Virus record (IMG/VR): IMGVR_UViG_3300044695_004869
DNA: 64,000 bases
Reading direction: 5' to 3' (one strand)
Source of the DNA: a virus
Lineage: Duplodnaviria > Caudoviricetes
Of this stretch, positions 6,992-54,918 are shown piece after piece; position 1 is the stretch's first letter; every line of letters starts with the position of its first letter. The notes beneath the pieces were generated by a model that did not search any database, was not told the origin of the DNA, and saw only the letters and a program-made list of their open reading frames with translations. The translations under genes and the position numbers were made by a program.

Positions 6992-7004
6992 TTATAGTTT
7001 TTAC

Positions 7005-7012
7005 TATAAATA
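7005..7012 (-). promoter_or_regulatory. TATTTATA motif (putative late promoter element)
   Basis: 13 nt upstream of the ATG at 6991. The same motif recurs upstream of many structural genes. Confidence 0.55.
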
Positions 7013-7029
7013 TGCGGAACTACTAAATA

Positions 7030-8703: not shown

Positions 8704-8713
8704 ATACTTTTTT

Positions 8714-10509: not shown

Positions 10510-10513
10510 ACTT

Positions 10514-21850: not shown

Positions 21851-21886
21851 CTTTAACTTTTAAACTTGGTTGTTATTTTTAACGAT

Positions 21887-24814
21887 ATGGAAAAGATTAA
21901 ATTATTATACTTAACACCCCACCTATCAACAGGGGGTATGCCTCAATTCGTCTTAAAAAGAATTCAATCATTACAAGAATATAAAGATCAGATTGAGATA
22001 TTTTTAGTTGAATACTCTCAATTCAGTTCAACATATGTTGTACAAAGAGATCAAATTATAAAATTATTAGGAAATAATCACTTCTTCACGTTAGGCGGAA
22101 CTGATGAGGTTGACAAAAAAAATATGTTGATTGACATCTTAAAAAACAATAAGATTGATATTCTTCATTCAGAAGAAATGATTGATGGATTTGAATCGTT
22201 TAATAAAGTTCCAATTGATCTACTAAACCAAATTTACTCTAACGATAGAACTTGGAGAATTATTGAGACGTGTCATAATATTTGGTTTAACCCACTATCA
22301 GATAAAAAATTACATCCTGACGCTTATTCTCTTGTAACACCATATCATATGGAGGTTTCTTTTAAAGATACCCCCCCAATGAAATTTCTATCAACATATC
22401 CATATGAAAACAAAGTAACACCTATCTTAGCGGAAAATGAAATCTATGGTGATTTCAAACAATTACCTCTTATACATAAAATAAAAGTTAGAGAAGAACT
22501 TGGTTTGGATATGTTTAAAACTCACGTATTAAATGTGGGATTATGGACAAGTGGTAAAAATCAAGGTGAGGGTGTTGAGGTCGCAAGAACTTTGGTTGAA
22601 TCTAATCCTGATATTCAATTCCATTTTATTGGAAATCAAGCACCAAACTTTGAGGACTATTGGGGTCCGATTATGAAGAACTTACCATCAAATGTTAAAG
22701 TATGGGGTGAAAGAAATGATGTTGATAAATTTATGCAAGCCTCCGATGTTTTAATGTTTAATTCAACTTGGGAATGTAATCCTTTGGTTATTAGAGAATC
22801 TATTAACTATGGTATGAAAATATTAACAAGAAATCTACCACAATATATGGGAATGTTTGATAAATACATTAAACCAATTAGTGGTGAGATCGAAGACATT
22901 TCAAAACAATTAGTTAAACTTATTAATAATGAACACACATATGACATACCAAACGATACTGATTTTGGTGATAACCTTTTGTCAATGTATCGTATTGTTC
23001 TAAATGAACAAATAAGACATAACGAACCAATTAAAAATGATTACATTTATACACAACATTATGTGTGTCAACCATTTTTTGAATTTAGAGGTCAAAGTGA
23101 AAATAAGTTTTTAATTAAAATGTTTGATGGTGATGACAATCTTATTTATAGTAATACGTTATCAATTAATAGTTGGATTAAATTAAATAGAGAATATTAT
23201 ACAGATTGGAGAACAGAGGTGTGGGAAAATGATGAATTGATTTATGAAAATAAAATTAACTTAGAAGGAAAAAGAGTTTATATATCGTTCGGATCAAAAT
23301 CATTAGGGGATACAATGGCTTGGATTCCTTATGTTGAGGAATTTAGATTAAAACATAAATGCGAATTAATTGTCTCGACATTTATGAACCAACTATTTGT
23401 TGATCAATATCCAAATATTGAATTTGTTGATCCGGGAAATGTTGTTATGAATATTCATGCCCAATATAGAATAGGGTGGTTCTATAATGAAGATGGTTCC
23501 GTAAATTATAATATGACACCAAATGATTATAAAAAACAACCATTACAAAAAACCGCAACAGATATATTAGGTCTTGAATATAATGAGATAAAACCAAAAC
23601 TTAAATTACCAAATGTTCCAAAAAAGAAAAAAGTCGGTATTGGATTTCACTCAACGGCGCAGTCAAAATATTGGAATAACCCAAATGGATGGCAAGAAGT
23701 TATTGATTATCTTATAAATTTAGGATACGAATGTATGATTTATTCTAAAGAGGGGGATGGGTATATGAATAACCATTACCCAAAAGGAGTAACTATTTTT
23801 GAAGGGGGTGACCTACAAAAAGTAATTAATGATCTTGTTACTTGCGAATTCTTTATTGGTTTGGGATCAGGGTTATCTTGGTTAGCGTGGGCTTGTGAAT
23901 TACCGATAGTTTTAATATCAGGATTTAGTGAGAAATGGGCAGAAACAACTTTAGACACATATAGAGTTATTAATGAAAATGTTTGTCACGGATGTTTTAA
24001 TTCGGAAAAATTAGATGCGGGAGATTGGAATTGGTGTCCATTACATAAAGGTACCAATAGAATGTTTGAATGTACAAAACAAATTACATCTCAAATGGTT
24101 ATTTCTGAAATAAATAAAATTCTTAAAAAAGAAAATCTTCCTGTTTTTGATTGGGGTTGGATGAATACAGATATCATTAATGCCCAATATCATAAAGAAG
24201 TTATGTACAATGAAATTTTTATTGATAAGGTTTATGAAAGATTTTTTGAGGTTGAGGAAGGTGATATTGTATTTGATATTGGATCAAGTGTTGGTCCTTT
24301 TACAAAATCAATTTTACATAAAAAACCAAAGCACGTATTCTGTATTGAACCAAGTACCTCCGAATTTAAAACTTTAGTTAAAAACACCTTAGGTTATCCT
24401 GTAACACAAATAAATAAAGGTATTGGTTTTACAAACGGGATTGTTGAATCTAATGAACTTTTTGGTGGGGAAACACATATGGAATCTATAAATTTTAAAA
24501 AACTATTGGATCTTTATGGAATTGAAAAAATTGATTTCTTAAAAACAGATTGTGAAAGTGGTGAATATGAAATCTTTAGAGATGAAAACGTTGAATTCAT
24601 TAAGAATAATGTTAAAAAGATTTCAGGTGAGTGGCACTTAAGAACGGATGAAAGTAGAGAAAAATTCAGACATTTTAGAGATAATGTATTACCTAACTTT
24701 GATAATTACCAAATATTCTCTGTTGATAATATTGATATCAAATGGGAATTGTGGACCGAAAGATTTCTTGAATGGTATGACGAAATAATTATCTATATTG
24801 ATAATAGAAAATAA
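21887..24814 (+). CDS. Tri-domain fusion: GT4-like + Aah/TibC-type protein O-heptosyltransferase + FkbM methyltransferase
   Basis: GT4: STGGMPQF...ASDVLMFNSTWECNPLVIRES. BAHT: LEGKRVYISFGSKSLGDTMAWIPY...FIGLGSGLSWLAW...CHGCFN...WCPLHKGTNRMFECTKQI. FkbM: FDIGSSVG, IEPS, IDFLKTDCESGE. The likely start is the ATG at 21887 (the ORF track extends to 21866). Confidence 0.85.
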   Translation: MEKIKLLYLTPHLSTGGMPQFVLKRIQSLQEYKDQIEIFLVEYSQFSSTYVVQRDQIIKLLGNNHFFTLGGTDEVDKKNMLIDILKNNKIDILHSEEMIDGFESFNKVPIDLLNQIYSNDRTWRIIETCHNIWFNPLSDKKLHPDAYSLVTPYHMEVSFKDTPPMKFLSTYPYENKVTPILAENEIYGDFKQLPLIHKIKVREELGLDMFKTHVLNVGLWTSGKNQGEGVEVARTLVESNPDIQFHFIGNQAPNFEDYWGPIMKNLPSNVKVWGERNDVDKFMQASDVLMFNSTWECNPLVIRESINYGMKILTRNLPQYMGMFDKYIKPISGEIEDISKQLVKLINNEHTYDIPNDTDFGDNLLSMYRIVLNEQIRHNEPIKNDYIYTQHYVCQPFFEFRGQSENKFLIKMFDGDDNLIYSNTLSINSWIKLNREYYTDWRTEVWENDELIYENKINLEGKRVYISFGSKSLGDTMAWIPYVEEFRLKHKCELIVSTFMNQLFVDQYPNIEFVDPGNVVMNIHAQYRIGWFYNEDGSVNYNMTPNDYKKQPLQKTATDILGLEYNEIKPKLKLPNVPKKKKVGIGFHSTAQSKYWNNPNGWQEVIDYLINLGYECMIYSKEGDGYMNNHYPKGVTIFEGGDLQKVINDLVTCEFFIGLGSGLSWLAWACELPIVLISGFSEKWAETTLDTYRVINENVCHGCFNSEKLDAGDWNWCPLHKGTNRMFECTKQITSQMVISEINKILKKENLPVFDWGWMNTDIINAQYHKEVMYNEIFIDKVYERFFEVEEGDIVFDIGSSVGPFTKSILHKKPKHVFCIEPSTSEFKTLVKNTLGYPVTQINKGIGFTNGIVESNELFGGETHMESINFKKLLDLYGIEKIDFLKTDCESGEYEIFRDENVEFIKNNVKKISGEWHLRTDESREKFRHFRDNVLPNFDNYQIFSVDNIDIKWELWTERFLEWYDEIIIYIDNRK

Positions 24815-24849: not shown

Positions 24850-25548
24850 TTAACAAGGACCTTGATATGCTAGTGTAGAGGATCCGTCCCAATAGTAACA
24901 ATCAGTTCCGTCACTATAAAAGGCATCTCTCGCCGGAATTTTACAAAGATTATCATCAAATATTCCATCGGCATTTGCCAAATTACACGTACCACCACAA
25001 GGTAAGTGTAGGTAATATACTGCCGTTGTATTACAAGAACAAGCTTCCCCACATTCCGGACCATAACATAATTCTCTTTCACAACAAACTTCAACACAAG
25101 GTGTTGGAGTCGGAGTTGGTGTTGGCGTTGGACTTGATCCGGCCGATGTTGCCGTTGGTGTTGCCGTTGGAGCCGAGGTATTTGATGGAGTAACGGGTGG
25201 TGTTGATGCCGGTGTTGCCGGAGGAGTTCTTGTTGGTGTAGGTGTCATTGTTGGTGTACTAGGTGGTGTTTTTGTTGGGGTCGTCGTTGGTGTTACAGTT
25301 CTTGTTGGTGTATTAGTTGGTGTATTAGTCGGCGTATTAGGTGGTGTTCTTGTTGGAGTTGCGGTTCTTGTTGGTGTCATAGTTTGTGTTGGTACAGGAC
25401 TTCCTCCCGGTGTTCTTGTTGGTGTCACTGTTGGTGTTGGTGAACAGAAATCAATGTCATCCATTTTACTTGCATTTGCTTTAAGTATATCATCAACTTT
25501 GCTGATATTAGCACATAAAACGTCATTAACTTTACTTACTGTTGGCAT
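24850..25548 (-). CDS. Small Pro/Thr-rich mucin-like protein with Cys-rich C-terminus
   Basis: N-terminal SKV-x-D repeat, about 115-aa TPT tract, C-terminal [11 protein letters not shown]...C. Confidence 0.75.
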
Positions 25549-25558: not shown

Positions 25559-28500
25559 TTATACTAACTCAATCCAATCTTGTGAAGGGTTAAAGTAAAC
25601 TTCGTCAGTTGCAATTGCGTATCCGCAAACTCTCACAATATCGGCGGTTCCCGTTGGTTGAGTGGATGTTAGAGTATCTCCTGCGGTCGATAGGTAAACC
25701 GGAGCACCAATAGTAAATGACCAAGACGTATTTTTAAAGTAACCTCTTACTAACATACCTCTGTTATAAGCCACTGCATTAGTACATATACCAAGTAAGT
25801 TTCTTGATGCAGATGCGCTATCCGCATCTGCCGACAACCAAGTGTTGGATGATGATAAATATCTAACTTGTCCAACGGCGGGACTAAATCCTACATCACC
25901 AATAGATAATAATTCACCATAATGGTCACCATTTGACGCTAATCTTGATACAGGATCAGTGTTGATTGTATAATATCCTGATGTTCTTGTAACTTGGAAG
26001 TGATCTGATATTGTTGCACTTCCCGTAACATTTAGTAGGTTTGTTATTCCATTAAATGTTAAGTTAGGTTCTGAGTTTGCCGAATTTGCGGTTCCATTAG
26101 CGGTTAATATGTTATTATCTGTTGTTGGAGAAATTGAAGTAAATCCTGTACCTGATGTACCATTTGTTCCGGTAGTACCATTGGTACCTGATGTACCGTT
26201 TGTTCCTGAAGTTCCATTAGTTCCGTTTGTTCCATTTGTACCATTTGTTCCTGAAGTTCCATTAGTTCCGTTTGTTCCGTTGGTCCCATTTGTTCCTGAA
26301 GTTCCATTAGTACCGTTGGTTCCATTAGTTCCATTTGTACCTGATGTCCCATTAGTACCGTTCGTACCATTTGTTCCATTAGTTCCATTTGTACCTGATG
26401 TCCCATTAGTACCGTTCGTACCATTTGTTCCATTAGTTCCATTTGTACCTGATGTCCCATTAGTACCGTTCGTACCATTTGTTCCATTAGTTCCATTTGT
26501 ACCTGATGTCCCATTAGTACCGTTGGTTCCATTAGTTCCATTTGTACCTGATGTCCCATTAGTACCGTTGGTTCCATTAGTTCCATTTGTACCTGATGTC
26601 CCATTAGTACCATTAGTACCTGATGTTCCGGCAGCTCCGCTTACACCAGATGTCCCATCAGTTCCTGATGTACCATTTGTTCCGTTAGTCCCTGATGTTC
26701 CGTTTGTTCCACTAGTACCGTTAGTCCCTGACGTTCCATTGGTTCCGTTAGTTCCCGATGTTCCATCGGTTCCGCTAGTACCATCGGTTCCACTTGTTCC
26801 GTTTGTACCATTCGTTCCTGAAGTACCATTCGTTCCTGAAGTTCCATTAGTACCGTTGGTTCCTGATGTTCCGTTAGTACCGTTGGTTCCTGATGTTCCG
26901 TTAGTACCGTTGGTTCCTGATGTTCCGTTAGTACCGCTAGTTCCATTAGTACCATTGGTTCCTGAAGTTCCATTTGTTCCACTTGTTCCGTTTGTACCTG
27001 ACGTTCCATTAGTACCATTGGTTCCTGAAGTTCCATTAGTACCATTGGTTCCTGATGTTCCGTTAGTTCCTGAAGTTCCATTTGTGCCGTTTGTACCAGA
27101 AGTACCGTTGGTTCCATTTGTTCCTGAAGTTCCATTAGTACCGTTGGTTCCTGATGTTCCATTTGTACCGTTGGTACCATTTGTACCGCTAGTTCCGTTA
27201 GTACCTGATGTACCATTTGTTCCGCTAGTACCATTCGTTCCATTTGTTCCTGAAGTACCGTTAGTACCCGAAGTACCATTTGTGCCCGAAGTTCCATTTG
27301 TTCCGTTAGTACCTGAAGTCCCATTGGTTCCATTTGTTCCTGAAGTTCCGTTTGTACCACTTGAACCATTCGTTCCGTTAGTACCTGAGGTTCCATTGGT
27401 TCCATTTGTACCATTTGTCCCCGAAGTCCCGTTTGTACCACTTGATCCGTTTGTTCCTGAAGTTCCATTTGTTCCATTCGTACCGCTAGTTCCATTTGTT
27501 CCTGACGTTCCATTTGTACCGTTTGTTCCTGACGTTCCATTTGTTCCGCTAGTTCCATTAGTACCATTTGTTCCCGAAGTTCCATTTGTTCCATTCGTAC
27601 CGCTAGTTCCATTTGTTCCTGACGTTCCATTTGTACCGTTTGTTCCTGACGTTCCATTTGTTCCGCTAGTTCCATTAGTACCATTTGTTCCCGAAGTTCC
27701 GTTAGTTCCGCTAGTACCATTTGTTCCATTCGTACCTGAAGTACCATTAGTGCCATTAGTCCCATTCGTACCCGAAGTTCCATTTGTTCCTGACGTTCCA
27801 TTCGTACCATTTGTTCCTGAAGTCCCATTAGTTCCACTTGAACCATTTGTTCCATTCGTACCTGAAGTACCATTAGTACCATTAGTCCCATTCGTACCCG
27901 AAGTTCCATTTGTTCCTGACGTTCCATTCGTACCATTTGTTCCTGACGTTCCATTCGTACCATTTGTTCCTGAAGTCCCGTTAGTTCCAGATGTTCCGTT
28001 CGTACCTGAAGTCCCGTTAGTTCCATTTGTTCCACTAGTACCATTCGTACCTGATGTACCATTAGTACCGTTGGTACCACTTGAACCATTTGTTCCTGAG
28101 GTACCATTAGTCCCATTTAAACCACTTACACCTGAAGTTCCGTTAGTTCCAGATGTTCCATTTGTTCCGCTAGCACCATTTGTCCCGTTGGTCCCTGAAG
28201 TTCCATTCGTACCCGATGTACCATTAGTTCCGCTAGTACCGTTCGTACCATTAGTTCCGCTAGTACCGTTCGTTCCGTTAGTTCCGTTAGTACCGGATGT
28301 TCCATTAGTACCTGAAGTTCCATTAGTACCATTTGTTCCTGATGTCCCATTTGTTCCTGATGTTCCATTTGTCCCGTTAGTACCCGAAGTTCCATTAGTT
28401 CCATTAGTTCCTGAAGTTCCATTCGTTCCGCTAGTTCCATTTGTACCTGATGTTCCATTCGTTCCGTTTGTACCTGAAGTTCCATTTGTACCTGATGACC

Positions 28501-31500
28501 CATTAGTTCCATTCGTACCTGATGTACCATTAGTACCGTTCGTACCATTTGTTCCGTTTGTTCCGCTAGTACCATTTGTGCCTGACGTTCCATTTGTTCC
28601 GTTAGTACCATTCGTACCAGATGTTCCATTCGTACCGTTGGTTCCATTTGTTCCGTTAGTACCTGACGATCCATTTGTACCATTAGTTCCCGAAGTACCA
28701 TTTGTTCCACTAGTACCATTTGTTCCATTAGTACCCGAAGTCCCATTAGTTCCATTTGTACCGTTTGTTCCATTCGTACCCGAAGTTCCATTTGTACCGT
28801 TCGTTCCACTTGTTCCATTTGTCCCCGAAGTTCCATTAGTACCATTAGTTCCATTGGTTCCGTTTGTACCTGAAGTTCCGTTAGTTCCATTTGTCCCCGA
28901 TGTCCCGTTGGTACCACTTGAACCATTTGTTCCGTTAGTACCTGAGGTTCCGTTTGTACCATTTGTTCCATTCGTGCCGCTAGTACCATTTGTTCCGTTA
29001 GTACCTGAAGTTCCATTCGTTCCATTAGTACCGTTAGTTCCTGAAGTCCCATTTGTACCATTAGTTCCTGATGTACCATTAGTTCCGTTAGTCCCGTTTG
29101 TTCCATTAGTACCGCTTGTACCATTCGTTCCATTTGTTCCTGAAGTGCCGTTAGTTCCATTCGTACCATTTGTACCATTAGTTCCTGATGTACCATTAGT
29201 TCCGTTAGTCCCGTTTGTTCCATTAGTACCGCTTGTACCATTCGTTCCATTTGTTCCTGAAGTGCCGTTGGTTCCATTTGTACCGTTAGTACCGTTGGTT
29301 CCCGAAGTTCCATTTGTACCGTTAGTTCCATTGGTCCCGCTCGTACCATTAGTACCGTTGGTACCGCTTGAACCATTTGTCCCTGATGTTCCATTAGTTC
29401 CGTTTGTACCGGATGTTCCGTTAGTTCCATTCGTACCATTTGTTCCGTTTGTACCGGATGTTCCGTTAGTTCCATTCGTACCATTTGTTCCCGAAGTTCC
29501 GTTAGTACCGCTAGTTCCATTTGTACCGTTGGTCCCATTAGTACCTGATGTTCCGTTAGTCCCACTAGTTCCATTTGTTCCGTTCGTACCATTGGTTCCT
29601 GATGATCCATTGGTTCCATTTGTTCCTGAGGTTCCATTTGTACCTGAAGTTCCATTAGTACCGTTTGTACCATTAGTTCCTGAAGTTCCATTCGTACCAT
29701 TTGTTCCGTTAGTACCGTTAGTACCGCTAGTTCCATCCGTTCCGTTCGTACCATTTGTTCCATTCGTACCTGAGGTCCCGTTAGTTCCATTCGTACCGTT
29801 TGTACCATTTGTTCCTGAGGTTCCGTTTGTTCCATTGGTTCCTGAAGTTCCATTCGTACCATTTGTTCCGCTAGTTCCGTTTGTCCCGTTTGTTCCATTT
29901 GTTCCGCTAGTTCCGTTTGTCCCGTTTGTTCCATTCGTACCGTTGGTTCCACTAGTTCCATTCGTACCATTTGTTCCGCTAGTTCCATTAGTACCATTCG
30001 TTCCACTAGTTCCATTTGTACCATTTGTTCCATTCGTACCATTAGTACCGTTGGTTCCCGAAGTACCATTTGTTCCGCTAGTTCCGTTTGTACCATTTGT
30101 TCCTGAGGTTCCATTTGTACCATTTGTTCCGTTGGTTCCGCTAGTTCCGTTTGTACCATTCGTTCCATTCGTTCCATTCGTTCCATTCGTACCCGAAGTT
30201 CCGTTGGTTCCTGAAGTACCGTTCGTACCATTCGTCCCTGAAGTTCCATTTGTTCCGTTTGTACCATTAGTTCCTGAGGTTCCATTTGTTCCGTTTGTAC
30301 CGCTAGTTCCATTAGTACCGTTGGTACCATTTGTTCCGTTAGTACCTGAAGTTCCATTTGTACCATTCGTTCCATTAGTTCCATTTGTACCGTTAGTACC
30401 TGATGTTCCGTTTGTTCCCGACGTGCCGTTAGTACCATTTGTTCCGTTAGTACCATTCGTTCCATTTGTACCGCTAGTGCCGTTTGTTCCTGAAGTCCCA
30501 TTTGTACCGCTCGTACCGTTTGTTCCATTCGTACCATTTGTTCCAGAAGTTCCGTTAGTACCACTTGAACCATTTGTACCTGATGTCCCATTGGTTCCAT
30601 TTGTACCGTTTGTTCCTGATGATCCGTTAGTACCATTTGTCCCATTCGTACCGTTCGTACCTGAAGTACCATTTGTTCCGCTAGTACCATTCGTACCGTT
30701 AGTTCCATTGGTTCCATTTGTACCTGATGTTCCGTTTGTACCTGAAGTACCGTTAGTTCCATTAGTACCCGATGTGCCATTTGTTCCGCTAGTTCCATTA
30801 GTACCGTTGGTTCCTGATGATCCGTTTGTACCATTTGTACCTGAAGTCCCATTAGTTCCTGACGATCCATTCGTACCATTTGTACCGCTAGTTCCATTTG
30901 TTCCGTTTGTGCCTGAGGTCCCATTAGTTCCGTTTGTACCTGAAGTACCGTTAGTTCCATTTGTACCGTTAGTTCCTGATGTTCCGTTTGTTCCTGAAGT
31001 ACCGTTAGTACCATTAGTACCCGATGTTCCGTTAGTACCGCTAGTCCCATTCGTTCCATTAGTACCGTTAGTTCCTGATGTACCATTCGTACCCGATGTT
31101 CCGTTTGTTCCATTTGTGCCGCTAGTTCCATTTGTACCTGAAGTTCCATTTGTACCATTCGTTCCTGACGTTCCATTAGTTCCATTAGTACCGTTTGTTC
31201 CCGATGTCCCGTTCGTACCATTTGTTCCACTAGTACCATTAGTTCCGTTCGTTCCGTTCGTACCATTTGTTCCTGACGTTCCATTCGTACCATTTGTCCC
31301 ATTAGTTCCGTTTGTACCTGAAGTACCGTTAGTTCCATTTGTTCCGTTAGTACCATTAGTCCCTGAAGTACCATTCGTTCCGCTAGTTCCGTTAGTACCA
31401 TTTGTTCCATTCGTCCCTGATGTTCCGTTAGTACCATTAGTTCCTGACGTTCCATTTGTTCCTGAAGTACCATTTGTACCATTGGTTCCTGAAGTTCCGT

Positions 31501-34500
31501 TGGTCCCGCTCGTACCATTTGTTCCATTTGTACCTGAAGTACCATTGGTTCCGTTAGTTCCTGAAGTTCCATTCGTACCTGAAGTACCATTTGTCCCTGA
31601 TGTCCCGTTAGTTCCATTCGTTCCGTTTGTACCTGAAGTACCATTAGTTCCGTTCGTACCACTTGTACCATTCGTACCGCTAGTTCCATTTGTACCATTA
31701 GTTCCATTCGTTCCGTTTGTACCTGAAGTTCCATTTGTACCATTAGTACCGTTTGTACCATTGGTTCCTGAAGTTCCGTTGGTTCCACTTGAACCATTAG
31801 TTCCGTTCGTTCCGCTCGTACCGTTTGTTCCATTTGTTCCTGACGTTCCATTAGTTCCGTTAGTACCATTTGTTCCCGATGTTCCGTTCGTACCGCTAGT
31901 ACCGTTTGTTCCATTCGTACCGCTAGTACCATTAGTTCCGTTTGTACCTGAAGTACCGTTAGTCCCATTTGTTCCTGAAGTTCCATTAGTACCCGAAGTA
32001 CCGTTGGTTCCATTCGTACCTGACGTACCATTAGTACCATTTGTTCCGTTAGTTCCATCTGTTCCTGAAGTTCCGTTAGTTCCATTCGTACCGTTTGTTC
32101 CATTCGTACCGTTTGTTCCACTAGTCCCGTTGGTACCCGAAGTTCCATTAGTTCCGTTAGTCCCTGACGTACCATTTGTACCATTGGTTCCTGATGTTCC
32201 ATCAGTACCGCTTGACCCTGAAGTACCGTTGGTACCACTTGAACCATTCGTTCCGTTTGTACCTGAAGTTCCATTCGTACCATTCGTACCCGAAGTTCCA
32301 TTAGTACCGTTAGTACCGTTAGTCCCCGACGTACCATTAGTTCCGTTAGTCCCTGAAGTTCCGTTTGTACCATTCGTACCGTTTGTTCCTGAAGTACCGT
32401 TTGTTCCTGATGTTCCGTTTGTTCCATTAGTACCTGACGATCCATTCGTACCATTCGTACCTGAAGTACCGTTAGTTCCGTTCGTACCTGAGGTTCCATT
32501 AGTACCGGAAGTCCCATTAGTTCCGTTCGTACCATTAGTACCGCTAGTTCCTGAAGAACCACTTGTTCCATTAATTATACCTAACGTAGTTTGACCATAT
32601 GAATAATGAGTTGTACCTTCGGTTACGAAAGTAATTGTATGTGATTGATTTGAGGTATTTGTAGCTCGAACTTTAACAAATATCCTATCTGTTGTATTGA
32701 TTGAAAATCCTCCTTGAAATCCATCAGATAATACCATTGATGGGTTTGGTGAATTTGTTGTTACAGGTGCTGGGTCTGTTGAAAATAATAAAGTTTCAGT
32801 CCCACCTGTTGTTCTTGAATAAACTTCACAGAATATATCAAAACTTGCATTATTGTTTTCTTTATACGCGTGTAAGAAGAAAGACCAAATTCCCGCAGGT
32901 ATGGTTGATACATTCGGATAAGTTGAGGGTGTTAAATATGATTGAATAGTTGATGTTACACCATTCGCAATAGTAACCGTAACTGTTTGTTGCGACCCTG
33001 ATGTCGGTATTGGTGAAAATTCTTTATAAGGGGTTTGTGTTACTGATTCGTTAAAGAAATAAACAGCACCACCTGAAATACCATTAACACCGCTAGTACC
33101 GTTCGTACCATTAGTTCCCGATGTTCCATTAGTACCATTCGTACCTGAAGTTCCATTTGTTCCGTTAGTACCACTTGTACCATCTGTCCCATTAGTTCCA
33201 TTCGTACCGTTTGTTCCGTCAGTACCATTGGTTCCTGAGGATCCGTTTGTACCTGAAGTTCCATCCGTTCCGTTCGTACCATTTGTTCCATTCGTACCTG
33301 AAGTTCCATTCGTACCTGAGGTCCCGTTAGTTCCATTCGTACCGTTTGTACCATTTGTTCCTGAGGTTCCGTTTGTTCCTGAGGTTCCGTTTGTTCCATT
33401 GGTTCCTGAAGTCCCATCCGTTCCGTTCGTACCATTTGTTCCACTAGTCCCGTCAGTTCCATTTGTTCCTGAAGTTCCATCCGTTCCATCCGTTCCGTTC
33501 GTACCATTTGTTCCACTTGAACCATCTGTACCATTTGTTCCACTTGAACCATCTGTACCATTAGTACCTGAAGTTCCGTCAGTCCCATTTGTTCCACTTG
33601 AACCATCTGTACCATTAGTTCCGTTTGTACCTGATGTTCCATTAGTTCCGTTTGTACCTGATGTTCCATCGGTTCCATTTGTTCCTGAAGTTCCATTTGT
33701 ACCATTGGTTCCTGATGTTCCATCTGTACCGTTTGTTCCGTTTGTTCCATTGGTTCCTGAGGATCCGTTTGTTCCATTGGTACCTGAAGTCCCATTTACT
33801 CCGGATATTCCACTAGTTCCATCTGTCCCACTCGTTCCGTCTGTTCCGCTCGTACCATTTGTTCCGCTCGTGCCATCTGTACCGCTCGTACCATCTGTAC
33901 CGTTTGTTCCGCTTGTACCATCTGTTCCGCTCGTGCCATCTGTTCCGCTCGTGCCATCTGTTCCGCTCGTACCATCTGTTCCGTTGGTTCCTGAAGTTCC
34001 ATTAGTACCACTTGACCCATCTGTTCCATTAGTTCCTGATGTTCCGTCTGTACCATTAGTCCCTGAAGTACCATTTGTTCCACTTGACCCATCCGTACCA
34101 TTAGTTCCGCTGGTTCCGTCGCTACCACTAGTACCATCTGTTCCGTTTGTTCCTGAAGTTCCGTCAGTTCCCGACGTTCCATTAGTTCCGTCAGTACCGC
34201 TAGTACCATCTGTTCCGTTTGTTCCTGAAGTCCCATCAGTTCCGTCAGTACCACTAGTTCCATCAGTACCATCAACACCTGAAAGACCACTTGTTCCATC
34301 TGTACCACTACTTCCATCCGTACCGCTAGTTCCATCGGTACCATTAGTTCCGTTTGTACCATTCGTTCCTGACGTTCCATCCGTTCCTGACGTTCCATCC
34401 GTACCTGAAGTTCCATCCGTACCGTTTGTACCGCTAGTTCCGTCTGTTCCTGAACTTCCATCCGTTCCACTAGTTCCGTCAGTACCATTAGTTCCACTAG

Positions 34501-36901
34501 TTCCGTCAGTCCCACTAGTTCCGTCAGTTCCACTAGTACCGTCAGTTCCACTAGTTCCGTCAGTACCACTAGTTCCGTCAGTACCATTCGTTCCGTTTGT
34601 TCCTGAAGTTCCATCTGTACCGTTTGTGCCCGAACTACCATCCGTACCATTAGTTCCGCTAGTTCCGTCCGTACCATCTGTCCCGTTAGTCCCCGAAGTT
34701 CCGTCTGTACCGTTTGTTCCACTAGTTCCATCTGTCCCACTCGTTCCGTCTGTCCCCGAAGTTCCGTCTGTTCCATTAGTTCCGCTTGAACCATCTGTTC
34801 CATTAGTTCCGCTTGTACCATCTGTTCCATTAGTTCCGCTCGTACCATCTGTTCCGTTCGTTCCATTAGTACCATTAGTTCCCGATGTTCCATCTGTCCC
34901 TGAAGTTCCATCCGTTCCGTTTGTTCCACTTGTACCATCCGTTCCGTTAGTACCTGAAGTACCATCTGTTCCATTTGTTCCGCTTGAACCATCCGTTCCA
35001 TTAGTACCTGATGTTCCGTCTGTACCGTTGGTTCCTGAAGTTCCATCTGTACCATTTGTACCATTTGTACCTGAAGTCCCATCCGTTCCACTTGAACCAT
35101 TTGTTCCATCAGTTCCCGAACTACCATTTGTACCATCAGTGCCGCTAGTTCCATCTGTACCTGAAGTACCACTCGTTCCATCGGTTCCGCTAGATCCATT
35201 TGTTCCATCAGTACCTGAAGTACCATCTGTTCCGCTTGAACCATCCGTGCCGTTTGTTCCTGAAGACCCATTTGTTCCATCTGTTCCGCTTGTCCCGTCA
35301 GTCCCTGAAGACCCATTAGTACCATCTGTTCCGCTTGTCCCTGAAGTACCGTCAGTTCCTGAAGTACCGTCAGTTCCGTTAGTTCCACTTGTGCCATCAG
35401 TTCCGCTAGTTCCATTTGTACCATTAGTTCCATTTGTACCGCTAGTGCCATTGGTACCATTAGTTCCTGACGTTCCATTGGTACCATTAGTTCCTGACGT
35501 TCCATCCGTTCCATTAGTACCGTTTGTTCCCGATGTACCATTCGTTCCGTTTGTTCCGTTAGTACCATTTGTTCCTGAAGTTCCATTTGTACCATTAGTC
35601 CCTGAAGTTCCATCCGTACCATTAGTCCCTGAAGTTCCATCCGTACCATTAGTTCCGCTAGTTCCGTCCGTTCCTGAAGTACCATCAGTTCCACTAGTTC
35701 CATCTGTTCCGCTTGTTCCATCAGTTCCACTAGTACCATTTGTTCCATTTGTCCCTGAAGTCCCATCAGTACCACTTGTTCCATCAGTACCACTTGTTCC
35801 ATCTGTACCGTTAGTTCCTGAAGTTCCGTCTGTTCCTGAAGTTCCGTCTGTTCCTGAAGTTCCGTCCGTACCTGAAGTTCCATCTGTACCACTTGTTCCA
35901 TTGGTACCACTTGTTCCATCGGTACCACTAGTTCCGTTTGTACCATTAGTTCCACTTGAACCATCCGTACCATCTGTACCGCTTGTTCCATCTGTACCGC
36001 TTGTTCCATCTGTACCACTTGTTCCATCTGTACCGCTTGTTCCATCTGTACCGCTTGTTCCATCTGTTCCGCTAGTTCCATTAGTACCGCTAGTTCCATC
36101 TGTTCCGTTAGTTCCACTTGTCCCATCGGTACCGCTAGTTCCATCTGTTCCACTAGTACCATTTGTTCCTGAACTACCATCTGTACCATCTGTACCATCT
36201 GTACCGCTAGTACCATTTGTACCACTAGTTCCGTTTACTCCTGAAATTCCGCTTGTACCATCTGTTCCGCTCGTACCATCTGTTCCTGAAGTACCGTTAG
36301 TCCCTGAAGTTCCGTTAGTCCCTGAAGTTCCGTTGGTTCCGTTTGACCCATCCGTCCCATTTGTTCCAGAACTTCCATTAGTACCATTTGTACCTGAAGT
36401 TCCGTCGGTACCATTAGTTCCTGAGGATCCGTTTGTTCCATCAGTTCCCGATGTCCCATTAGTACCTGATGTTCCGTTGGTACCTGAAGAACCGTTCGTT
36501 CCGGAAGATCCATTAGTTCCCGAAGAACCGTCAGTTCCGGAAGATCCTGATGAACCACTAGTTCCATCTGATCCATTCGTCCCATTCGTTCCATTAGTAC
36601 CTGAAGTACCATCTGTTCCGTTAGATCCGGAAGTTCCATCAGAACCCGAAGTACCATCTGTCCCTGATGTTCCGTCTGTTCCTGATGTTCCATTATTACC
36701 ACTGGTTCCATTTGTACCTGATGTACCATTAGTACCTGATGTGCCAACACTTGAGATTGCCGCACCTACTTGTGCGATTGTTGCTTTATAAGAAGATCCT
36801 GCCGGATTTTGGGACGTGTCACCAGTGATAACGATATGTATTAAATCATTAAGTGATACACCTGTGGCAATTGTCCTATCCGTCAGTCGTTGAAATCCCA
36901 T
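25559..36901 (-). CDS. Giant (3780 aa) Gly-Thr-X tripeptide-repeat collagen-like putative fibre protein
   Basis: Short N-terminal domain, two Gly-X-Y blocks ([12 protein letters not shown]) separated by a globular insert of about 165 aa, and a C-terminal domain of about 195 aa ending DIVRVCGY...[12 protein letters not shown]. Frame intact over 11.3 kb. Confidence 0.85.
26340..26610. repeat. Exact tandem array inside the fibre gene (3 x 54 bp then 45-bp units)
   Basis: CCTGATGTCC recurs at 26340, 26394, 26448, 26502, 26547 and 26592. Confidence 0.85.
27459..27692. repeat. Exact 117-bp tandem duplication
   Basis: The unit starting GAAGTTCCATTTGTTCCATTCG occurs at 27459 and 27576. Confidence 0.85.
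29049..29269. repeat. Direct repeat of about 104 identical bp with 117-bp period
   Basis: 29049..29152 equals 29166..29269. Confidence 0.8.
33071..36745 (-). repeat. Asp-rich Gly-Thr-(Asp/Ser/Asn) coding repeat block (about 1225 aa)
   Basis: 9-bp periodicity, with GTD abundant. Confidence 0.9.
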
Positions 36902-36935: not shown

Positions 36936-37244
36936 TTATTGGTCTTGGAAAATGAAAATCTCCGCATCCATATACAAGAATATTTCACCATCCTCAAATA
37001 TTTTACCCTTAGTAATACCTTGACAATAGATTATACCGAATAATTCACAACCAACAGAGTCAATCATTTTTAATCCAACCGCAGGGGCACCATTAAATTG
37101 TGGTGGTAATGTAATGATTAATGGAAATGTTGCTGTAGAAGGTATGGTGGCAATTAAAACACATTGATTACCATAAACGTCACAAGCGTAAAGAGTATAC
37201 GGATATGCTGATCCCGTTATGGAATTTATTTGGATTTGTGTCAT
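36936..37244 (-). CDS. Small Cys-containing protein, paralogue of the N-terminal module of 14648..16447
   Basis: PYTLYACDVYGNQC...IKMIDSVGC-like pattern versus [14 protein letters not shown]...IKLIDYDGC. Confidence 0.75.
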   Translation of the reverse strand: MTQIQINSITGSAYPYTLYACDVYGNQCVLIATIPSTATFPLIITLPPQFNGAPAVGLKMIDSVGCELFGIIYCQGITKGKIFEDGEIFLYMDAEIFIFQDQ

Positions 37245-37276: not shown

Positions 37277-40200
37277 TTAAATATATTTTCTATAATCGGC
37301 ATTATAGTTTTGTAATACCTCTGATGAGGTAAGTGCCGTATTATATAAACGAGTAATACCAATTTTTCCATCAAACCATTGAGAATACTCACCACCATTG
37401 TAACTACCAATGTAAAGTGGGTTATCCGTGTTTAGTATACTTGCCAAACTATGGCTCACACTTCCTATACTTACACCATTTACAAATGTTTCAAGTGTAT
37501 TAGACGAAACATTAGTAAACACATAAACTATCTGATACCAAGTACCAATCGTTCCAACGTAGTTTGTACTATTAACAAATAACGTTGACCCAGCACCACT
37601 ACCTGAACCTAATTGAGCGTAGTATGTGGTATTAGTTGTTCTGATACTATAACTTACATCTATAGTTAACCCTCCATTATCAAATTTTCCAAGTACAACA
37701 TCATTACCTAAAACCGATTGATTAACCCACACTTCCATAGTCCAATCTCCACTTCCTGGTTCTAATAATGTATTATCATCAACTCTAACTTGTGATGAAG
37801 TTCCATTATATGAAAAATATGGTGATGTATATGTAATACCCGACATTGAACCATTTAATCCATTTCCTGATAAATCATTTATTGTTGTACCAGTACCAGG
37901 GTAACTTGATAAATTACTTGGGTCATAATATAAAACAATATTTCTTAAAACAGGTTCGTTTGTTGGAGTACCGGTTGGTGTCGGTGTAGTCGTGTTAGTG
38001 GGAGTATTAGTATTAGTAATAGTTGGTGTTACTGTTGGGGTTGATGTTATGGTATTTGTTGGTGTGGGAGTAGGTGTTACTTCAATAAATCTTGGGGCCA
38101 AGAAGTTATATTGTTGAGTTATTTCAGAAAGTGATAATTGTCTATTATAGAAAAACATATTGGCAACATATCCAAATGGTTGACTTGGTCCCTGATTATT
38201 ACCCCAAGTCCAATGTGTGGTACCACCCGCACCAAAAGAAATAGGATCACCGACTTCTATATTATTAATGTAGAATGTTTGTGATGAACTATCCCCGACC
38301 ACTGAGTACTGAACCCAAAGATCAGTTTGACCAGATAAATCATATCCAGAACTTCTAAATTCAGTATCCCAATAACCCAACGTATTTGTTCCATTAGGAA
38401 TTGTAATTGGCGTGTATATAGGTGTGTTTGTGGTAAGTAGTGTTCTAAATGATGCGATATTGTCTGAATCTAATCTAGACCAAGTAATATATGTATATCC
38501 CGATGTTGGTAAGGTAGGGCCTGTTCCATTTACAACAACCTTATTAGTTCCTGTCGTACAATCAAAACATTTTATTCCATTAAGAATTGTGTAGGTTGCA
38601 CCTGTTAATGTGTGGTCATACGTTCCTGGTGTTTGTAAGTTAACAACGTTCGTTCCTGAACCCGAATAACTTAACTCATCATACGCGTCTAATCGTATAA
38701 TTAATCCGGATGTGACCAAGTTTGGTGTTGATGTTAATGTTGGGGTATTAGTTGGTGTTGTTGTTAAAGTTGGTGTATTAGTTACTGTTGGTGTAGGTGT
38801 GTTAGTTGGAGTGTTAGTTGGAGTTTCAGTTATTGTGGGGGTGGGTGTATTAGTTGGAGTATTTGTTGATGTTATAGTTGGCGTATTTGTTGGAGTATTT
38901 GTTGATGTTATAGTTGGCGTATTTGTTGGAGTAATTGTGCTTGTGTTTGTTGGTGTATTAGTTGGAGTTGTTGTTGGAGTATTGGTGGAAGTTATTGTTG
39001 GGGTTGGTGTAATAGTTGAAGTTACTGTTGGGGTGTTGGTTGGTGTTGGTGTTACAATTGGAGGATTAAAAACATAAGAAGTGTCAATTGAGAATGACAT
39101 TTCACCATCGTAAATAATACTAAAATCGTCAAATACTGATTCACCATTCAGTAGAGAATAATCAGTATCGGTTATTTGAATAATAGACCCATTAGTTTCT
39201 CCTGCCAATATGGATATTGACGTATCAATTTGAATTGGGTCTCCCGATGTTAAATATATATAATTTCTTAAAATTAAAATAATATCTTTTTCAAGAGGTT
39301 GATCCATGTATAATTCATAGAGAGAGGATACCGAACCAGATGAATATGTTGCAAATAAAACAAAAGACACAGAATTAACAGGGAATGAATCTGTACATAT
39401 TGATAATAAAGAACCGCTACTAACACCACTACCTGTTATTGTAAGTGATGTAAAGTTGACAGAATTTTGTATTAAGAATTTACCCCCACCTCCGGTAATA
39501 GGAGCTCCCGCACCGGAAAGAATTTGATTTCCTGATATTGTCGTAAAACAACTTGATGGTGATGAAATTGTTGGTATTCCCGTACCTGTATTAGTAGTGA
39601 AAACAAAATTTTCATTGTTAAGTTGTCCTGTTGCCGTTAAAAATATTGTAATATTATTTACAGGAGAACTAAAATTCATTGTATAACTAAATGGACCATT
39701 TTGACCTAACCATCTTGAATTTGCGGGAGTTGTAACATTACCACAACTAGTAAATGGATTTGCGTGTAATCCAACTGAACCGGTAAACGAATCGGTTATT
39801 GTTATTCCATTTATTGTTGTTGGAGGTACAACACTTGAATTACATGACAATACAGGTATTGATGGTTGAATTGAATCTGTACATATATCCATATAAGTAC
39901 CACCAAGTCCTCCGGGACCCACAACGGTTAATGTTGTGAAAGAGGTTGAATTAGATATTTTAAAAATACCATTTCCGGCGGTACCTAAAGGGGTAAAAGG
40001 AGAGCAAGTTGGTGAAGTATATGCTGCCGTTATTGTATTACCGCTAATAATTGCGCAACAATAGTTACAAGATGATATTGAGGGAATCCCACTACCGGTA
40101 TTTGTTGTAAATGTAAATGATTCTACAATTGTTGTACCAGAATCGTATCCATATAATCTTATTACAATATCATTTACAGGTACACTGAACGATAATGTAT

Positions 40201-41074
40201 ATGTAAATGGACCGACAGGACCGGGGGTGCAATTTCCTAACCAAATAGTGTTAATACTTGAAATAGGGGGAGGGAGTGGACACCCCATCCCAAGACCAGA
40301 ATTTGGGTACGATCTAACACAACCGGTACTTGAGGCGTAAATTGTTACACCATTATATGTTACGGAATTACCCGATTGTGGTAACAATCCGGCGGTTGTA
40401 CAAGACGGACAAATAGGTGTTGATGTTGGTGTTGGCGATGGCGGTGTATTTGTTGGTGTTAAAGTCGCGGTTTTAGTTGGAGTGTTTGTATTTGTTGGTG
40501 TATTTGTTGGAGTTGCAAAAGGGAATGATAAGGTCGGTGTAGGTGTTTGAGTGGATGTTGGTGTTGGATAACATAATCCAGATGTTGGTGTAGGACTTAT
40601 TTTCGGTGTTTTGGTTGGAGTTGGAGTTTTACTTGGTTGAGGACATCCACATGGGTTTGTACAAGTTTCACTTGGTGTCGGAGTATTAGTTGGAGTTATT
40701 GTTGGTGTTGATGTAGTTGTTGGAGTTGGGGTTGGTATTTTACATGGATCAACGGTTAAAGTAGGTGTCACAGTTGGAGTAACTGATGGTGTTTGTGTTC
40801 TTGTAATTGTAGGAGTCGGTGTTGGTGTAGGTGTAGGTCTAACAACTTGCATTATATTCGGACAATCCGTATTACAACTTCCATCAGTACCTAAAACTAA
40901 AATTGTGTACGTACCATATATTTCTCTTGGTGGATTTAATAATGATGAATCAAACAAATATGGTAAAAGATGATTACCCAAATTAATAACAACATTGTCA
41001 TTATCAGGTTTGAATAAAATGGTTGCAATTTGACCATTGAATGTAATACTACTTATTAATATGGTTTGACTCAT
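37277..41074 (-). CDS. Large modular mucin-like protein with tandem beta-modules and two LamG domains
   Basis: TPT tracts, two modules of about 160-185 aa ending ICTDS, and two LamG domains ([15 protein letters not shown]; [16 protein letters not shown]...[15 protein letters not shown]). Confidence 0.8.
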
Positions 41075-50459: not shown

Positions 50460-51067
50460 TGAACGATAATAAAGTTGATGAGTTTGAGGAAATGCTCAAA
50501 CGAGTTAGTACTCTTGAGGCAGCGTTAGATGATGATGGTGAAATAGAAATTGATTATGATTCCATAATCCAAGAATTTGGTTTAGATGTTGAGGAATTGG
50601 AAAGAGCAATGGAATCCATGCAACCCACAATTAAATTACATTATAGTAAATCTAATTCAGGATCAACATCCCCATCATACGCATACCAAACAGATTCGGG
50701 AATGGATTTATTTTCTACCGAATCAATCACATTAAAACCTTTTGGTAGAGGTTTGATCCCAACGGGAATACATTTTGATATACCTGAAAATTATGAAATA
50801 CAAGTTAGATCAAAAAGTGGTTTGGCATTAAATCAAGGATTGATGGTTTTAAATTCTCCCGGCACTGTAGATCAAGGATATACTGGTGAAATAAAAGTTA
50901 TAATGTTTAACACGACTAGTAATCCCGTAGAAATTAAACAAGGTCAGAAAATTGCTCAAGCAGTTATGACACCTGTAGTTTGTGGTAAATGGATTGAATT
51001 AACTGAAGTGGATAATGTTACCTCGAAAGATAGAGAGGATAAAGGGTTTGGAAGTACAGGAATATGA
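50459..51067 (+). CDS. dut: Trimeric dUTPase with acidic N-terminal extension
   Basis: All five motifs: SGMDL, RSKSGLA, GTVDQGYTGEI, KIAQAV, GFGSTG. Confidence 0.92.
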   Translation: MNDNKVDEFEEMLKRVSTLEAALDDDGEIEIDYDSIIQEFGLDVEELERAMESMQPTIKLHYSKSNSGSTSPSYAYQTDSGMDLFSTESITLKPFGRGLIPTGIHFDIPENYEIQVRSKSGLALNQGLMVLNSPGTVDQGYTGEIKVIMFNTTSNPVEIKQGQKIAQAVMTPVVCGKWIELTEVDNVTSKDREDKGFGSTGI

Positions 51068-52455: not shown

Positions 52456-53071
52456 TTTTTTTGATAAAACATTTTGCATTAATTTAGAAAGAAGATCTGA
52501 TAGATGGGAAGAATGTCTTATAGAGTTTAATAAATACGGATTAACAAATATTAATCAATTTAATGCTGTTGACGGTAAAGAATTACCACAGGTCATATCA
52601 GGGTTTGTTACACCATCAAGATTGGCATTAGTTTTAACTAATATGAAAATACTAGAAGAAGCGTTAGAAAATAATTATAAATCAATATTAATTTTAGAAG
52701 ATGATGTTGAATTTAACCATCAAGTTATTGATATGGAAGATTATTTTAAAATGTTACCCGATGATTGGGATATGTTATATTTTGGGGGCAACCATAATAC
52801 TCACATGAATGTAAAACCCCCAATTATAGTTAATGAAAAAGTTTGTAAATTACATAAAACATATAGTACTCATTGTGTTGCAATTAATGGTAAATCAATT
52901 AGTAAAGTGTATGATAGAATAAAAAAACGTGATAATGCTCTTGATGTTATTTATGTTGAGTTACAAAATACGTTAAACGTCTATTCATTTTATCCTATGA
53001 TTGCAACTCAGAGAGTTAGTTTTAGTGATATTGAAAATAGAGTAACTGATTATAAATGGTTAATAAAATAA
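52442..53071 (+). CDS. GT25-family glycosyltransferase
   Basis: FCINLERRSDRW, FNAVDG, ILILEDDV, WDMLYFG. Confidence 0.85.
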   Translation: MKITDFFDKTFCINLERRSDRWEECLIEFNKYGLTNINQFNAVDGKELPQVISGFVTPSRLALVLTNMKILEEALENNYKSILILEDDVEFNHQVIDMEDYFKMLPDDWDMLYFGGNHNTHMNVKPPIIVNEKVCKLHKTYSTHCVAINGKSISKVYDRIKKRDNALDVIYVELQNTLNVYSFYPMIATQRVSFSDIENRVTDYKWLIK

Positions 53072-53073
53072 TT

Positions 53074-54917: not shown

Positions 54918-54918
54918 T

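Follow-up and report, generated by a model that had tools for sequence, protein, structure and literature searches.

A 3780-residue collagen-like protein paired with a TibC-family glycosyltransferase gene in an uncultured phage

The stretch of DNA analyzed here, 64,000 nucleotides of the IMG/VR virus record IMGVR_UViG_3300044695_004869 (Duplodnaviria; Caudoviricetes) and referred to below as the window, carries on its minus strand a giant open reading frame (ORF) for a protein of 3780 amino acids (aa), P0001. The protein is modular, with an anchor, a rod, a node, a second rod, a neck, and a knob, and both rods consist of collagen-like Gly-X-Y triplets. A gene for a protein-directed glycosyltransferase, P0185, converges on it, and this genetic pairing with collagen-like genes is conserved in other viruses. 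We consider it very probable that P0001 is a fiber of the virion. That its repeats form a triple helix seems fairly likely, while whether it is glycosylated by the adjacent enzyme is an even call. The picture that we lean toward is of a trimeric virion fiber with triple-helical rods, glycosylated by the enzyme encoded next to it. The orientation on the virion described below and a function as a long-reach adhesin or a whisker used in host search are proposals. The modules of the protein are as follows.

25559–36901, minus strand: whole ORF of P0001, giant collagen-like, probable fiber protein (3780 aa plus stop)
36746–36901, minus strand: N-terminal module, aa 1–52 (containing GSSYKAT), putative virion-attachment anchor by homology to P0141 and others
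33074–36745, minus strand: collagen-like run 1, aa 53–1276, 408 triplets, acidic (script count; PF01391)
32570–33073, minus strand: internal non-repeat insert, aa 1277–1444, 168 aa, all-beta sandwich in a predicted model, possible hinge or node
26153–32569, minus strand: collagen-like run 2, aa 1445–3583, 713 triplets, neutral (script count)
25955–26152, minus strand: neck segment, aa 3584–3649, with the motif ...NNILTANGT...EPNLTFNG..., common to other fiber proteins
25562–25954, minus strand: C-terminal knob, aa 3650–3780, predicted to form trimers, gp82C- or Phage_cement_2-like (HMMER, profile, and homotrimer prediction)

Anatomy of the collagen-like protein

A preliminary description of this DNA had reported about 1120 Gly-X-Y triplets made mostly of Gly, Thr, Asn, Ser, and Asp, and a script count agrees, with exactly 1121 in the open 3780-aa ORF, arranged in two uninterrupted runs (408 and 713). 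The whole protein contains 1157 Gly, 1118 Thr, 639 Asn, 486 Ser, and 142 Asp residues. Position X is Thr in 1057 of the 1121 triplets (94%), and position Y is Asn in 607, Ser in 388, and Asp in 124; Pro, Lys, Arg, and Glu do not occur in any of them. The protein had also been called proline-free, which is true of the repeats but not of the protein, as it has 18 Pro residues, every one outside the repeats. Run 1 (128 GTN, 125 GTS, and 114 GTD triplets) has 118 Asp residues, and run 2 (472 GTN and 211 GTS) has only six. The Pfam Collagen family (PF01391) matches aa 53–400 with an E-value of 4.3e-54 and 180.6 bits (cut-off 27.2), a match that is largely compositional. Stabilizers of the collagen type, whether Pro and hydroxyproline or charged networks as in Scl2, are absent from the repeats; hydration networks could arise there from the polar residues Thr, Asn, and Ser. 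Large overlapping ORFs read in the other frames or from the plus strand (e.g., 26109–32594) are shadows of the repeat. The periodicity of the minus-strand frame is far beyond chance, and this frame alone has N- and C-terminal domains with homologs.

Computed at 0.286 nm per residue, run 1 would measure about 350 nm and run 2 about 612 nm. A fiber of about 1 µm had been proposed, and the arithmetic (about 0.96 µm) stands if both runs are straight triple helices. However, the rod is not one continuous helix, because the 168-aa insert separates the 408-triplet run from the 713-triplet run. A single-sequence AlphaFold2 model of this insert has nine strands at a mean predicted local distance difference test (pLDDT) score of 56, and a Foldseek search returned jelly rolls of microviruses, birnaviruses, and nanoviruses, and the C-terminal domain of the C. 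perfringens enterotoxin, all with a template modeling (TM) score <0.4. The predicted fold indicates no more than a beta-sandwich. The insert had no Pfam or PHROG match; by tblastn, it is 87% identical in the collagen-like ORFs of two related loci (L086 and L090).

The preliminary description had also included a short anchor at the N-terminus and a globular domain at the C-terminus, and both ends of the protein proved to be conserved. Residues 1–52 are 52% identical to the N-terminus of P0141, and tblastn with this module gave matches of 52–75% at the starts of collagen-like ORFs in five loci (L093, L095, L097, L110, and L136). The module also has a weak match to phrog_19691 (virion structural protein). 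As it is common to shorter fiber proteins, we infer that the N-terminus is the virion anchor. P0141 (570 aa) has the same N- and C-termini as P0001, with a beta-rich middle part and no collagen. It lies at the syntenic position in L080, where the flanks are kept (a GT2 glycosyltransferase, a dUTPase, a PolB-type exonuclease, and homologs of a 1429-aa and a 102-aa protein); next to it, neither the Cys-rich gene nor the TibC-like glycosyltransferase gene described below was found. The neck motif was seen directly in P0002, P0004, P0015, P0077, and P0141. Among proteins with the same termini, the number of triplets is 0 in P0141, 28 in L097 (535 aa), 192 in L093 (1077 aa), 421 in L136 (1752 aa), and 1121 in P0001. 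Because the termini are the same over a range of 0 to 1121 triplets, the collagen rod can be understood as a spacer of expandable length set between two conserved ends, the anchor and the knob.

For the C-terminal end, an exhaustive HMMER search with aa 3584–3780 (threshold E≤1e-3) found homologs in 6950 representative proteins. In nearly all of the 150 matches listed, the match is at the extreme C-terminus, while the N-terminal parts of these relatives vary widely, some with short collagen runs and many fiber-like. A word-indexed search with the C-terminal region, limited to proteins of similar total length, gave no match. When a profile of 110 knob family members (A1) was compared with solved structures, a single entry was returned, gp82 of the Anabaena myophage A-1(L) (PDB 8keg, residues 124–231, E 7.9e-7). 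Prediction of a homotrimer from three copies of aa 3650–3780 with alignment A1 gave an interaction prediction score from aligned errors (ipSAE) of 0.93 in three of three runs, with a pLDDT of 92. The best control reached an ipSAE of 0.33, and in calibration 20 of 30 true homomers and 1 of 23 monomers reached the mark. A single-sequence AlphaFold2 model of the C-terminal domain (pLDDT 30) was useless. The knob is thus predicted to form a trimer. In A-1(L), gp82 is a trimer whose N-domain binds the neck, and whose globular bead, gp82C, docks the N-terminal hairpins of the next fiber protein (PMC10966104), which is encoded next in the operon. While the C-terminal knobs are homologous, gp82 differs from P0001 in having 241 aa, no collagen, and an unrelated N-terminal domain. 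Moreover, the A-1(L) fiber reaches about 100 nm by stringing together about 16 globular trimers, whereas the length of P0001 would come from a single polypeptide rod.

The knob also raises the question of orientation, as P0001 could be a head whisker attached the other way around, with a cement-like C-terminal trimer docked on three-fold sites of the capsid and a free N-terminus. PF09956 (Phage_cement_2) matches the P0001 knob at 18.6–19.6 bits, below the cut-off of 24 (E 0.0012–0.0026), and matches 43 of the 110 knob family members more clearly (E<0.01; best 9e-9). The Atlas model of the relative P0042 resembles viral clusters only; these look-alike clusters are 78–100% viral and some carry PF09956. 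In addition, L003 has a 191-aa stand-alone version of the knob domain. Because the score of P0001 is below threshold, we regard the knob as a family related to PF09956 and not as a demonstrated capsid cement protein. The head whisker is also at odds with gp82, the sole structurally studied member of the family, which attaches by its N-domain and has its C-domain facing outward, carrying the next fiber protein. The knob is the extreme C-terminus in thousands of relatives with N-termini like those of fiber anchors, and none of the genes surrounding the stand-alone L003 copy matched a capsid or portal protein in scans with PHROG and Pfam. Among cultured phages, the knob domain was found only in Baltic myophages of Flavobacterium, where it ends an annotated tail-fiber protein in the tail module. 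Consequently, we consider the reversed orientation quite unlikely.

An antifreeze or ice-binding polymer, comparable to antifreeze glycoproteins, (Ala-Ala-Thr)n, or to the snow-flea antifreeze protein, had been raised earlier as well. All that P0001 has in common with these proteins is a tripeptide periodicity, here with Thr and in a phage from lake water, and it has no turn segments of the kind that join the helices of the snow-flea protein. Nothing that bears on antifreeze activity was found, either by homology or in the gene context, and the anatomy (anchor, rod, and predicted trimeric knob) and the homologs are those of fibers. We consider this reading highly improbable and have dropped it.

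The neighboring glycosyltransferase gene

P0001 lies between a small gene and a set of two genes, one of which encodes the convergent enzyme.

21866–24814, plus strand: P0185, convergent enzyme of 982 aa, with GT1-like, TibC/Aah-family O-heptosyltransferase, and FkbM methyltransferase domains (Pfam, NCBIfam, PDB)
23063–24130, plus strand: TibC-like catalytic domain of P0185, about aa 400–755 (alignment to TibC)
24850–25548, minus strand: Cys-rich gene, 232 aa, with an N-terminal motif, a Pro/Thr mucin-like linker, and a Cys-rich C-terminal domain; homologs in relatives
36936–37244, minus strand: upstream, co-oriented small gene of the same operon, 102 aa; its homolog adjoins P0141 in L080

P0185 scores 291.1 bits (cut-off 200; E 1.1e-86) on the NCBIfam family TIGR04414, the autotransporter strand-loop-strand O-heptosyltransferases Aah and TibC, and its C-terminal domain matches TIGR01444 (fkbM); the GT1-like domain is at the N-terminus. 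The match to the TibC structures 4rb4 and 4rap (E 3e-62) covers TibC residues 68–387. With residue roles taken from the TibC paper (PMC4358343), the catalytic base Asp110 aligns with Asp482 of P0185, and the iron-finger residues Cys339, Cys342, Cys358, and Cys370 align with Cys707, Cys710, Cys724, and Cys736. Thr226, Lys230, and Trp305 are kept as Thr597, Lys601, and Trp672. TibC-family enzymes are cytoplasmic and hyperglycosylate long repetitive proteins (PMC4358343); a phage fiber made in the cytoplasm would need this kind of enzyme. Like P0185, the genes for these bacterial autotransporter heptosyltransferases (BAHT; TIGR04414), which act on TibA and AIDA-I, adjoin the gene for a very long, repetitive, Ser/Thr-rich surface protein. 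Where P0185 differs is in its fused GT1 and FkbM domains, in being phage-encoded, in a putative substrate that is collagen-like and not a beta-helix autotransporter, and in an uncertain donor sugar. No AIDA-I-type autotransporter with 19-residue repeats was found beside P0185.

To find how regularly such enzymes accompany collagen-like genes, IMG/VR was searched with the TibC-like domain, which gave 374 viral stretches, and the pairing was counted among the best 80 loci. An ORF was called collagen-like if it had at least 28 triplets, and loci needed at least 3 kb on the side counted. The counts, which include near-duplicate phages and are not independent, were as follows.

Collagen-like ORF downstream of the glycosyltransferase gene: 35 of 61 loci (33 convergent, 0.1–5.5 kb away)
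PT-rich ORF downstream of the glycosyltransferase gene: 7 of 61 (the same loci)
Collagen-like ORF upstream of the glycosyltransferase gene: 16 of 73 loci

The collagen-like gene and the protein-directed glycosyltransferase gene thus form a conserved genetic pairing. Loci that are free of collagen are mainly those of more distant homologs of the enzyme, and many contigs end directly after the glycosyltransferase gene, a pattern that assemblies broken by a repeat gene would produce. The PT-rich proteins were rejected as a rival candidate for the conserved partner, since they lie downstream in 7 of 61 loci and collagen-like ORFs in 35 of 61. The whole three-gene set is kept in L001 and L002: the C-terminal region of the collagen-like protein is 69% identical, the Cys-rich protein 55% (over its last 84 aa in the L001 homolog, which follows the collagen-like gene and keeps the N-terminal motif), and the glycosyltransferase 64% over 376 aa. 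In the window, the 232-aa gene lies ten bases downstream of the giant ORF and is co-oriented with it, and tblastn found homologs of its product also in L083, L094, L112, and L116. The Cys-rich protein is a candidate for a distal partner of the fiber or for a second substrate of glycosylation.

Another pairing is found in a cultured phage, Microcystis phage Mel-JY01, in which a homologous enzyme (52% identity) adjoins a Ser-rich repeat "structural protein." This suggests that TibC-like enzymes serve repetitive fiber proteins in general. In Mel-JY01 (L167) the enzyme is a 1226-aa fusion (4750–8430) annotated only as "methyltransferase FkbM," and the Ser-rich protein lies at 3065–4591; this phage could serve as an experimental system for BAHT-type glycosylation of phage fibers. 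TibC-like domains (37–45% identity) also occur in the huge uncultured phages LR756501, LR756503, and LR756504 (H6–H8; 636–735 kb).

Glycosylation of the repeats had been proposed from their composition. The conserved, convergent gene for a TibC/Aah-family O-glycosyltransferase lends support to this proposal, and we regard P0001 itself as a putative substrate. N-glycosylation by an HMW1C-type enzyme is a further possibility, as the two runs contain 605 N-G-T/S sequons (472 of them in run 2); no GT41 (HMW1C-type) gene was seen among the window ORFs scanned with Pfam.

Taken together, these elements can be arranged in a mechanism. The knob would trimerize and set three chains in register, from which the two Gly-Thr-(Asn/Ser/Asp) runs would zip into triple helices of the collagen type, one about 350 nm and the other about 610 nm long. 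The small beta-sandwich node would join the two helices, giving a flexible two-segment whisker of up to about 1 µm. The 52-aa N-terminus would attach this fiber to the virion, with the knob distal and possibly carrying the 232-aa Cys-rich protein, as gp82C carries gp81 in A-1(L). In the host cytoplasm, the TibC-like domain would densely O-glycosylate Thr and Ser, providing stability and solubility, after which the GT1 and FkbM domains of the same protein would lengthen the glycan and methylate it. Dense O-glycosylation is proposed as the stabilizer because the repeats have neither proline nor charge pairs. The length of the rod would evolve quickly, as triplets are gained and lost, and the whisker would serve host search or adhesion.

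The repeats of a virion fiber need not be triple-helical. They may instead be extended, heavily glycosylated single chains, in the manner of a polyproline II (PPII) or mucin bottle-brush, or may form a bundle resembling polyglycine II. In either case the knob would hold the chains together in threes, and the fiber would have a shorter reach and be far more flexible. Repeats that have neither Pro nor charge pairs, and whose residues are said to have a low propensity for the triple helix, would be in keeping with this. The window is also full of mucin-like Pro/Thr proteins and glycosyltransferases, which suggests a general glycocalyx strategy, and TibC-type enzymes modify chains before their final assembly (PMC4358343). 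However, a disordered mucin-like chain needs no Gly at every third residue, whereas here the pattern holds without a break for 713 triplets (for up to 933 in relatives). A trimerizing domain directly adjoins the repeat, and PPII bundles such as that of the snow-flea antifreeze protein need turn segments, of which the P0001 repeats have none. This alternative is a serious one that we nevertheless consider unlikely.

Several observations weigh against the glycosylated triple-helical fiber that we favor, beyond the non-independence of the pairing counts and the absence of a spanning contig (see below). On the host-guest scales of Persikov and Brodsky, Thr reportedly ranks as a poor triple-helix former in position X, and so do Asn, Ser, and Asp in position Y. 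Within the enzyme, Arg286 of TibC aligns with Val653 of P0185 (Lys652 is adjacent), and Pro300, a stereoselectivity residue (Pro300/Ser294), aligns with Gly667. Consequently, the donor sugar may not be heptose, and genes of the ADP-heptose pathway were not seen among the window ORFs scanned. The known acceptors of TibC are Ser residues in beta-helix autotransporters, not collagen. In three large relatives (G001, G004, and G005), tens of kb separate the collagen gene, which is part of a glycosylation island, from the genes for baseplate, sheath, and capsid, so that the proposed attachment to the virion is tentative. Finally, the signal of transcription comes from one riverine metatranscriptome, with a weak match and an 11% word share, and does not amount to usable expression evidence.

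Length of the gene

A protein of this size also calls for an assessment of whether its length could be an assembly artifact, in which short-read repeats, maybe from several phages, were concatenated or expanded, the true gene being much shorter or two genes. Among the Logan contigs from four lake runs none spans the giant ORF, which leaves the triplet count without independent confirmation; they are interrupted at intervals of a few hundred bases and show numerous spurious joints. Genes of this kind also lie at the ends of many related contigs, which stop within or next to them. In the near-identical contigs L001 (6680–10597) and L002 (6608–10597), which come from two samples, the otherwise identical orthologs differ by exactly 24 aa (8 triplets), which may be either a natural length polymorphism or an assembly ambiguity. 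A chimeric join is also conceivable, as an acidic, anchored collagen gene and a neutral one are separate and adjacent in G003.

At the DNA level, however, copies of the repeat are only 65–70% identical (Tandem Repeats Finder), exact internal repeats reach 152 bp at most, and few k-mers are non-unique (614 of 11293 51-mers, and 52 of the 127-mers). With repeats this degenerate, the DNA is far more assemblable than the protein suggests. Logan pieces of 230–780 bp from the four lake runs, with zero mismatches, cover all 30 bins of the gene. The Logan "joints" within the repeat have sides of 20–30 bases and are repeat cross-matches, not evidence of deletion. Codon use in the giant ORF is similar to that in neighboring genes. 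The frame is open over 11.3 kb and joins N- and C-terminal modules that are also paired in shorter proteins. One bin, 32446–32842, at the junction of run 2 and the insert, has a summed contig depth about 10 times that of neighboring bins in all four lake runs, probably because short contigs there are common to many co-occurring related phages.

The strongest argument for a real gene is provided by the 2400–3400-aa versions in relatives. Independent contigs of 220–292 kb from other samples carry single ORFs of the same kind with 2900–3400 aa: G001 has one of about 3390 aa with a run of 800 triplets, G004 one of 3206 aa with a single uninterrupted run of 933 triplets, and G005 one of 2923 aa with 701 triplets and the same knob family. 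Other collagen-like ORFs of relatives reach 2396 aa (L083) and 2730 aa (L147). The repeats of these relatives are Gly-Thr/Ser-Asn/Ser/Asp, with Pro absent or nearly so (seven in the long ORF of G003, none in G001, G004, or G005). We therefore consider an artifact improbable, and the giant gene is probably real.

Two of the relatives deserve a closer description. The G004 ORF, at 10033–19650 on the plus strand of L165 (G004:C1:18600-38500), has repeats of the form Gly-(Thr/Ser)-(Ser/Asn) in a run longer than any in the window, and its product ends in a poly-Gly-rich tail with no knob. In G003 (L164, G003:C1:39000-56790), a 1373-aa acidic Gly-Thr-Ser/Asn/Asp collagen gene with the window-type N-terminal anchor (10425–14543, minus strand) adjoins a neutral Gly-Thr-Asn/Ser gene of 3192 aa and 675 triplets (728–10303, minus strand). 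Since the acidic and neutral modules are separate neighbors there, P0001 may be a fusion of two such collagen modules.

The virus, its other genes, and known systems

By Pfam and PHROG scans, the window encodes a dUTPase, a PolB-type exonuclease, PhoH, many structural-looking Laminin_G_3 proteins, and about 18 sugar-related genes. Capsid and tail genes were judged from G001 (274 kb), G004 (220 kb), and G005 (292 kb), which are 75–99% complete by CheckV, in place of the window phage. All three have a tail sheath and baseplate J; a Gp23-type (T4) capsid protein was matched in G004 and G005 and looked for without a match in G001. Given the sheath, baseplate J, Gp23-type capsid, and sizes of 220–292 kb, the relatives look like T4-like jumbo myoviruses. 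The flanking genes of the giant ORF are present in at least 20 lake-water metagenome runs, and the best explanation is that the window virus is a T4-like jumbo phage of freshwater lakes. A megablast of neighboring window genes against cultured phages gave no match. The host is likely a member of the Bacteroidota. Glycosyltransferase-rich freshwater jumbo phages termed "moraphages," with predicted Flavobacteriia hosts and several core glycosyltransferases, have been described (PMC12619734, 2025). They resemble the window phage in being large, freshwater, and rich in glycosyltransferases; the text of that description has no mention of "collagen" or "heptos."

Other genes of the window also point to sugars and adhesion. 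A GT60-type N-acetylglucosamine transferase (PF11397, E 4e-73; 13344–14591, minus strand) lies directly downstream of a 599-aa Thr/Pro mucin-like repeat protein (14648–16447, minus strand), and the two may be a second enzyme–substrate pair; the same GT60 gene occurs two genes after P0141 in L080. Laminin_G_3 (concanavalin-like) C-termini are found in four proteins, all on the minus strand (16521–17510, 18809–19840, 20114–21829, and 37277–41074), which are likely adhesins or receptor-binding proteins. The first three have a similar N-terminus, the third (20114–21829) also has a fibrinogen C-terminal-like segment and a Gly/Tyr-rich tail, and the 1265-aa Laminin_G_3 protein has relatives in 75 IMG/VR contigs. 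A sugar island on the plus strand (51064–60915 and 62567–63998) encodes a GT2/GT7C fusion, GT25, GT2, two DegT-type aminotransferases, a hexapeptide acetyltransferase, GT11 and GT10 fucosyltransferase-like genes, an epimerase/reductase, a GDP-mannose 4,6-dehydratase, GT1, and GT2, which amounts to a GDP-6-deoxyhexose/fucose-type pathway. A 634-aa protein (3448–5352, minus strand) has a C-terminal phosphatidylethanolamine-binding protein domain (PEBP, PF01161), which is unusual in a phage structural region.

Collagen-like segments are well known in phage fibers and bacterial surface proteins (PMC3368898, PMC8968730). Such proteins (PF01391; e.g., of an E. coli O157 prophage, Scl1/2, and BclA) likewise have Gly-X-Y repeats with flanking non-collagen trimerization domains and no hydroxyproline, and are in part phage-encoded and Thr-rich. 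BclA is O-glycosylated in its collagen region (PMC8968730, PMC3368898). While Pro is commonest at X and Thr at Y in bacterial collagens (PMC8968730), P0001 has Thr at X and Asn, Ser, or Asp at Y, with Pro absent from the repeats. A word-indexed search of 5.8 billion proteins (2079–6615 aa; the 8000 candidates sharing most words were scored), which is a limited census, gave no match with more than 209 triplets. To our knowledge, known collagen-like proteins of phages and bacteria have tens to a few hundred triplets.

Glycosylated collagens are known from other branches of life. The cuticle collagens of Riftia and annelids form micrometer-scale triple helices in which glycosylated Thr takes the place of hydroxyproline; in Riftia it stands at Y, and these collagens retain Pro. 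Mimivirus encodes both collagen-like fibril proteins and glycosylating enzymes, and modifies hydroxylysine. P0001 would share the concept of a glycosylated collagen with these systems, but its repeats have neither Lys nor Pro and there is no sequence kinship beyond the repeat. The Mimivirus proteins are also covered in PMC8968730. As to phage enzymes, a study of mycobacteriophages is cited for virion glycosylation, in which phage glycosyltransferases act on virion proteins (Freeman et al. 2023, as cited in PMC12619734). A full-text search of the library at hand combining heptosyltransferase, phage, and collagen-like gave no paper. What differs from known systems is the repeat composition, the scale of 1121 triplets, and the conserved pairing with a TibC-family enzyme.

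In the classical account, collagen owes its stability to imino acids, hydroxyproline, or networks of charges. A natural triple helix that exceeds 1000 triplets and is composed only of Gly, Thr, Asn, Ser, and Asp would put these rules directly to the test, and would be a simple, proline-free biomaterial scaffold that can be expressed in bacteria. The occurrence of a TibC/Aah-family enzyme beside collagen genes in dozens of phage contigs would extend BAHT hyperglycosylation from virulence autotransporters to phage fibers, and it offers a specific enzyme–substrate pair that is testable in E. coli. Such repeat genes may also explain broken metagenomic assemblies. Fibers several virion lengths long, and of rapidly variable length, would change estimates of the encounter cross-section in dilute lake water. 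A bolder proposal, which we hold to be doubtful though worth stating, is that a lineage of freshwater jumbo phages has micrometer-scale, proline-free "glyco-collagen" whiskers, in which a TibC-type ring glycosyltransferase acts processively on Thr and Ser, sugars replace hydroxyproline, and length is tuned over two orders of magnitude, from 0 to more than 1100 triplets, as repeats are gained and lost. If true, this would represent a new chemical solution to collagen stability and a new class of BAHT substrates.

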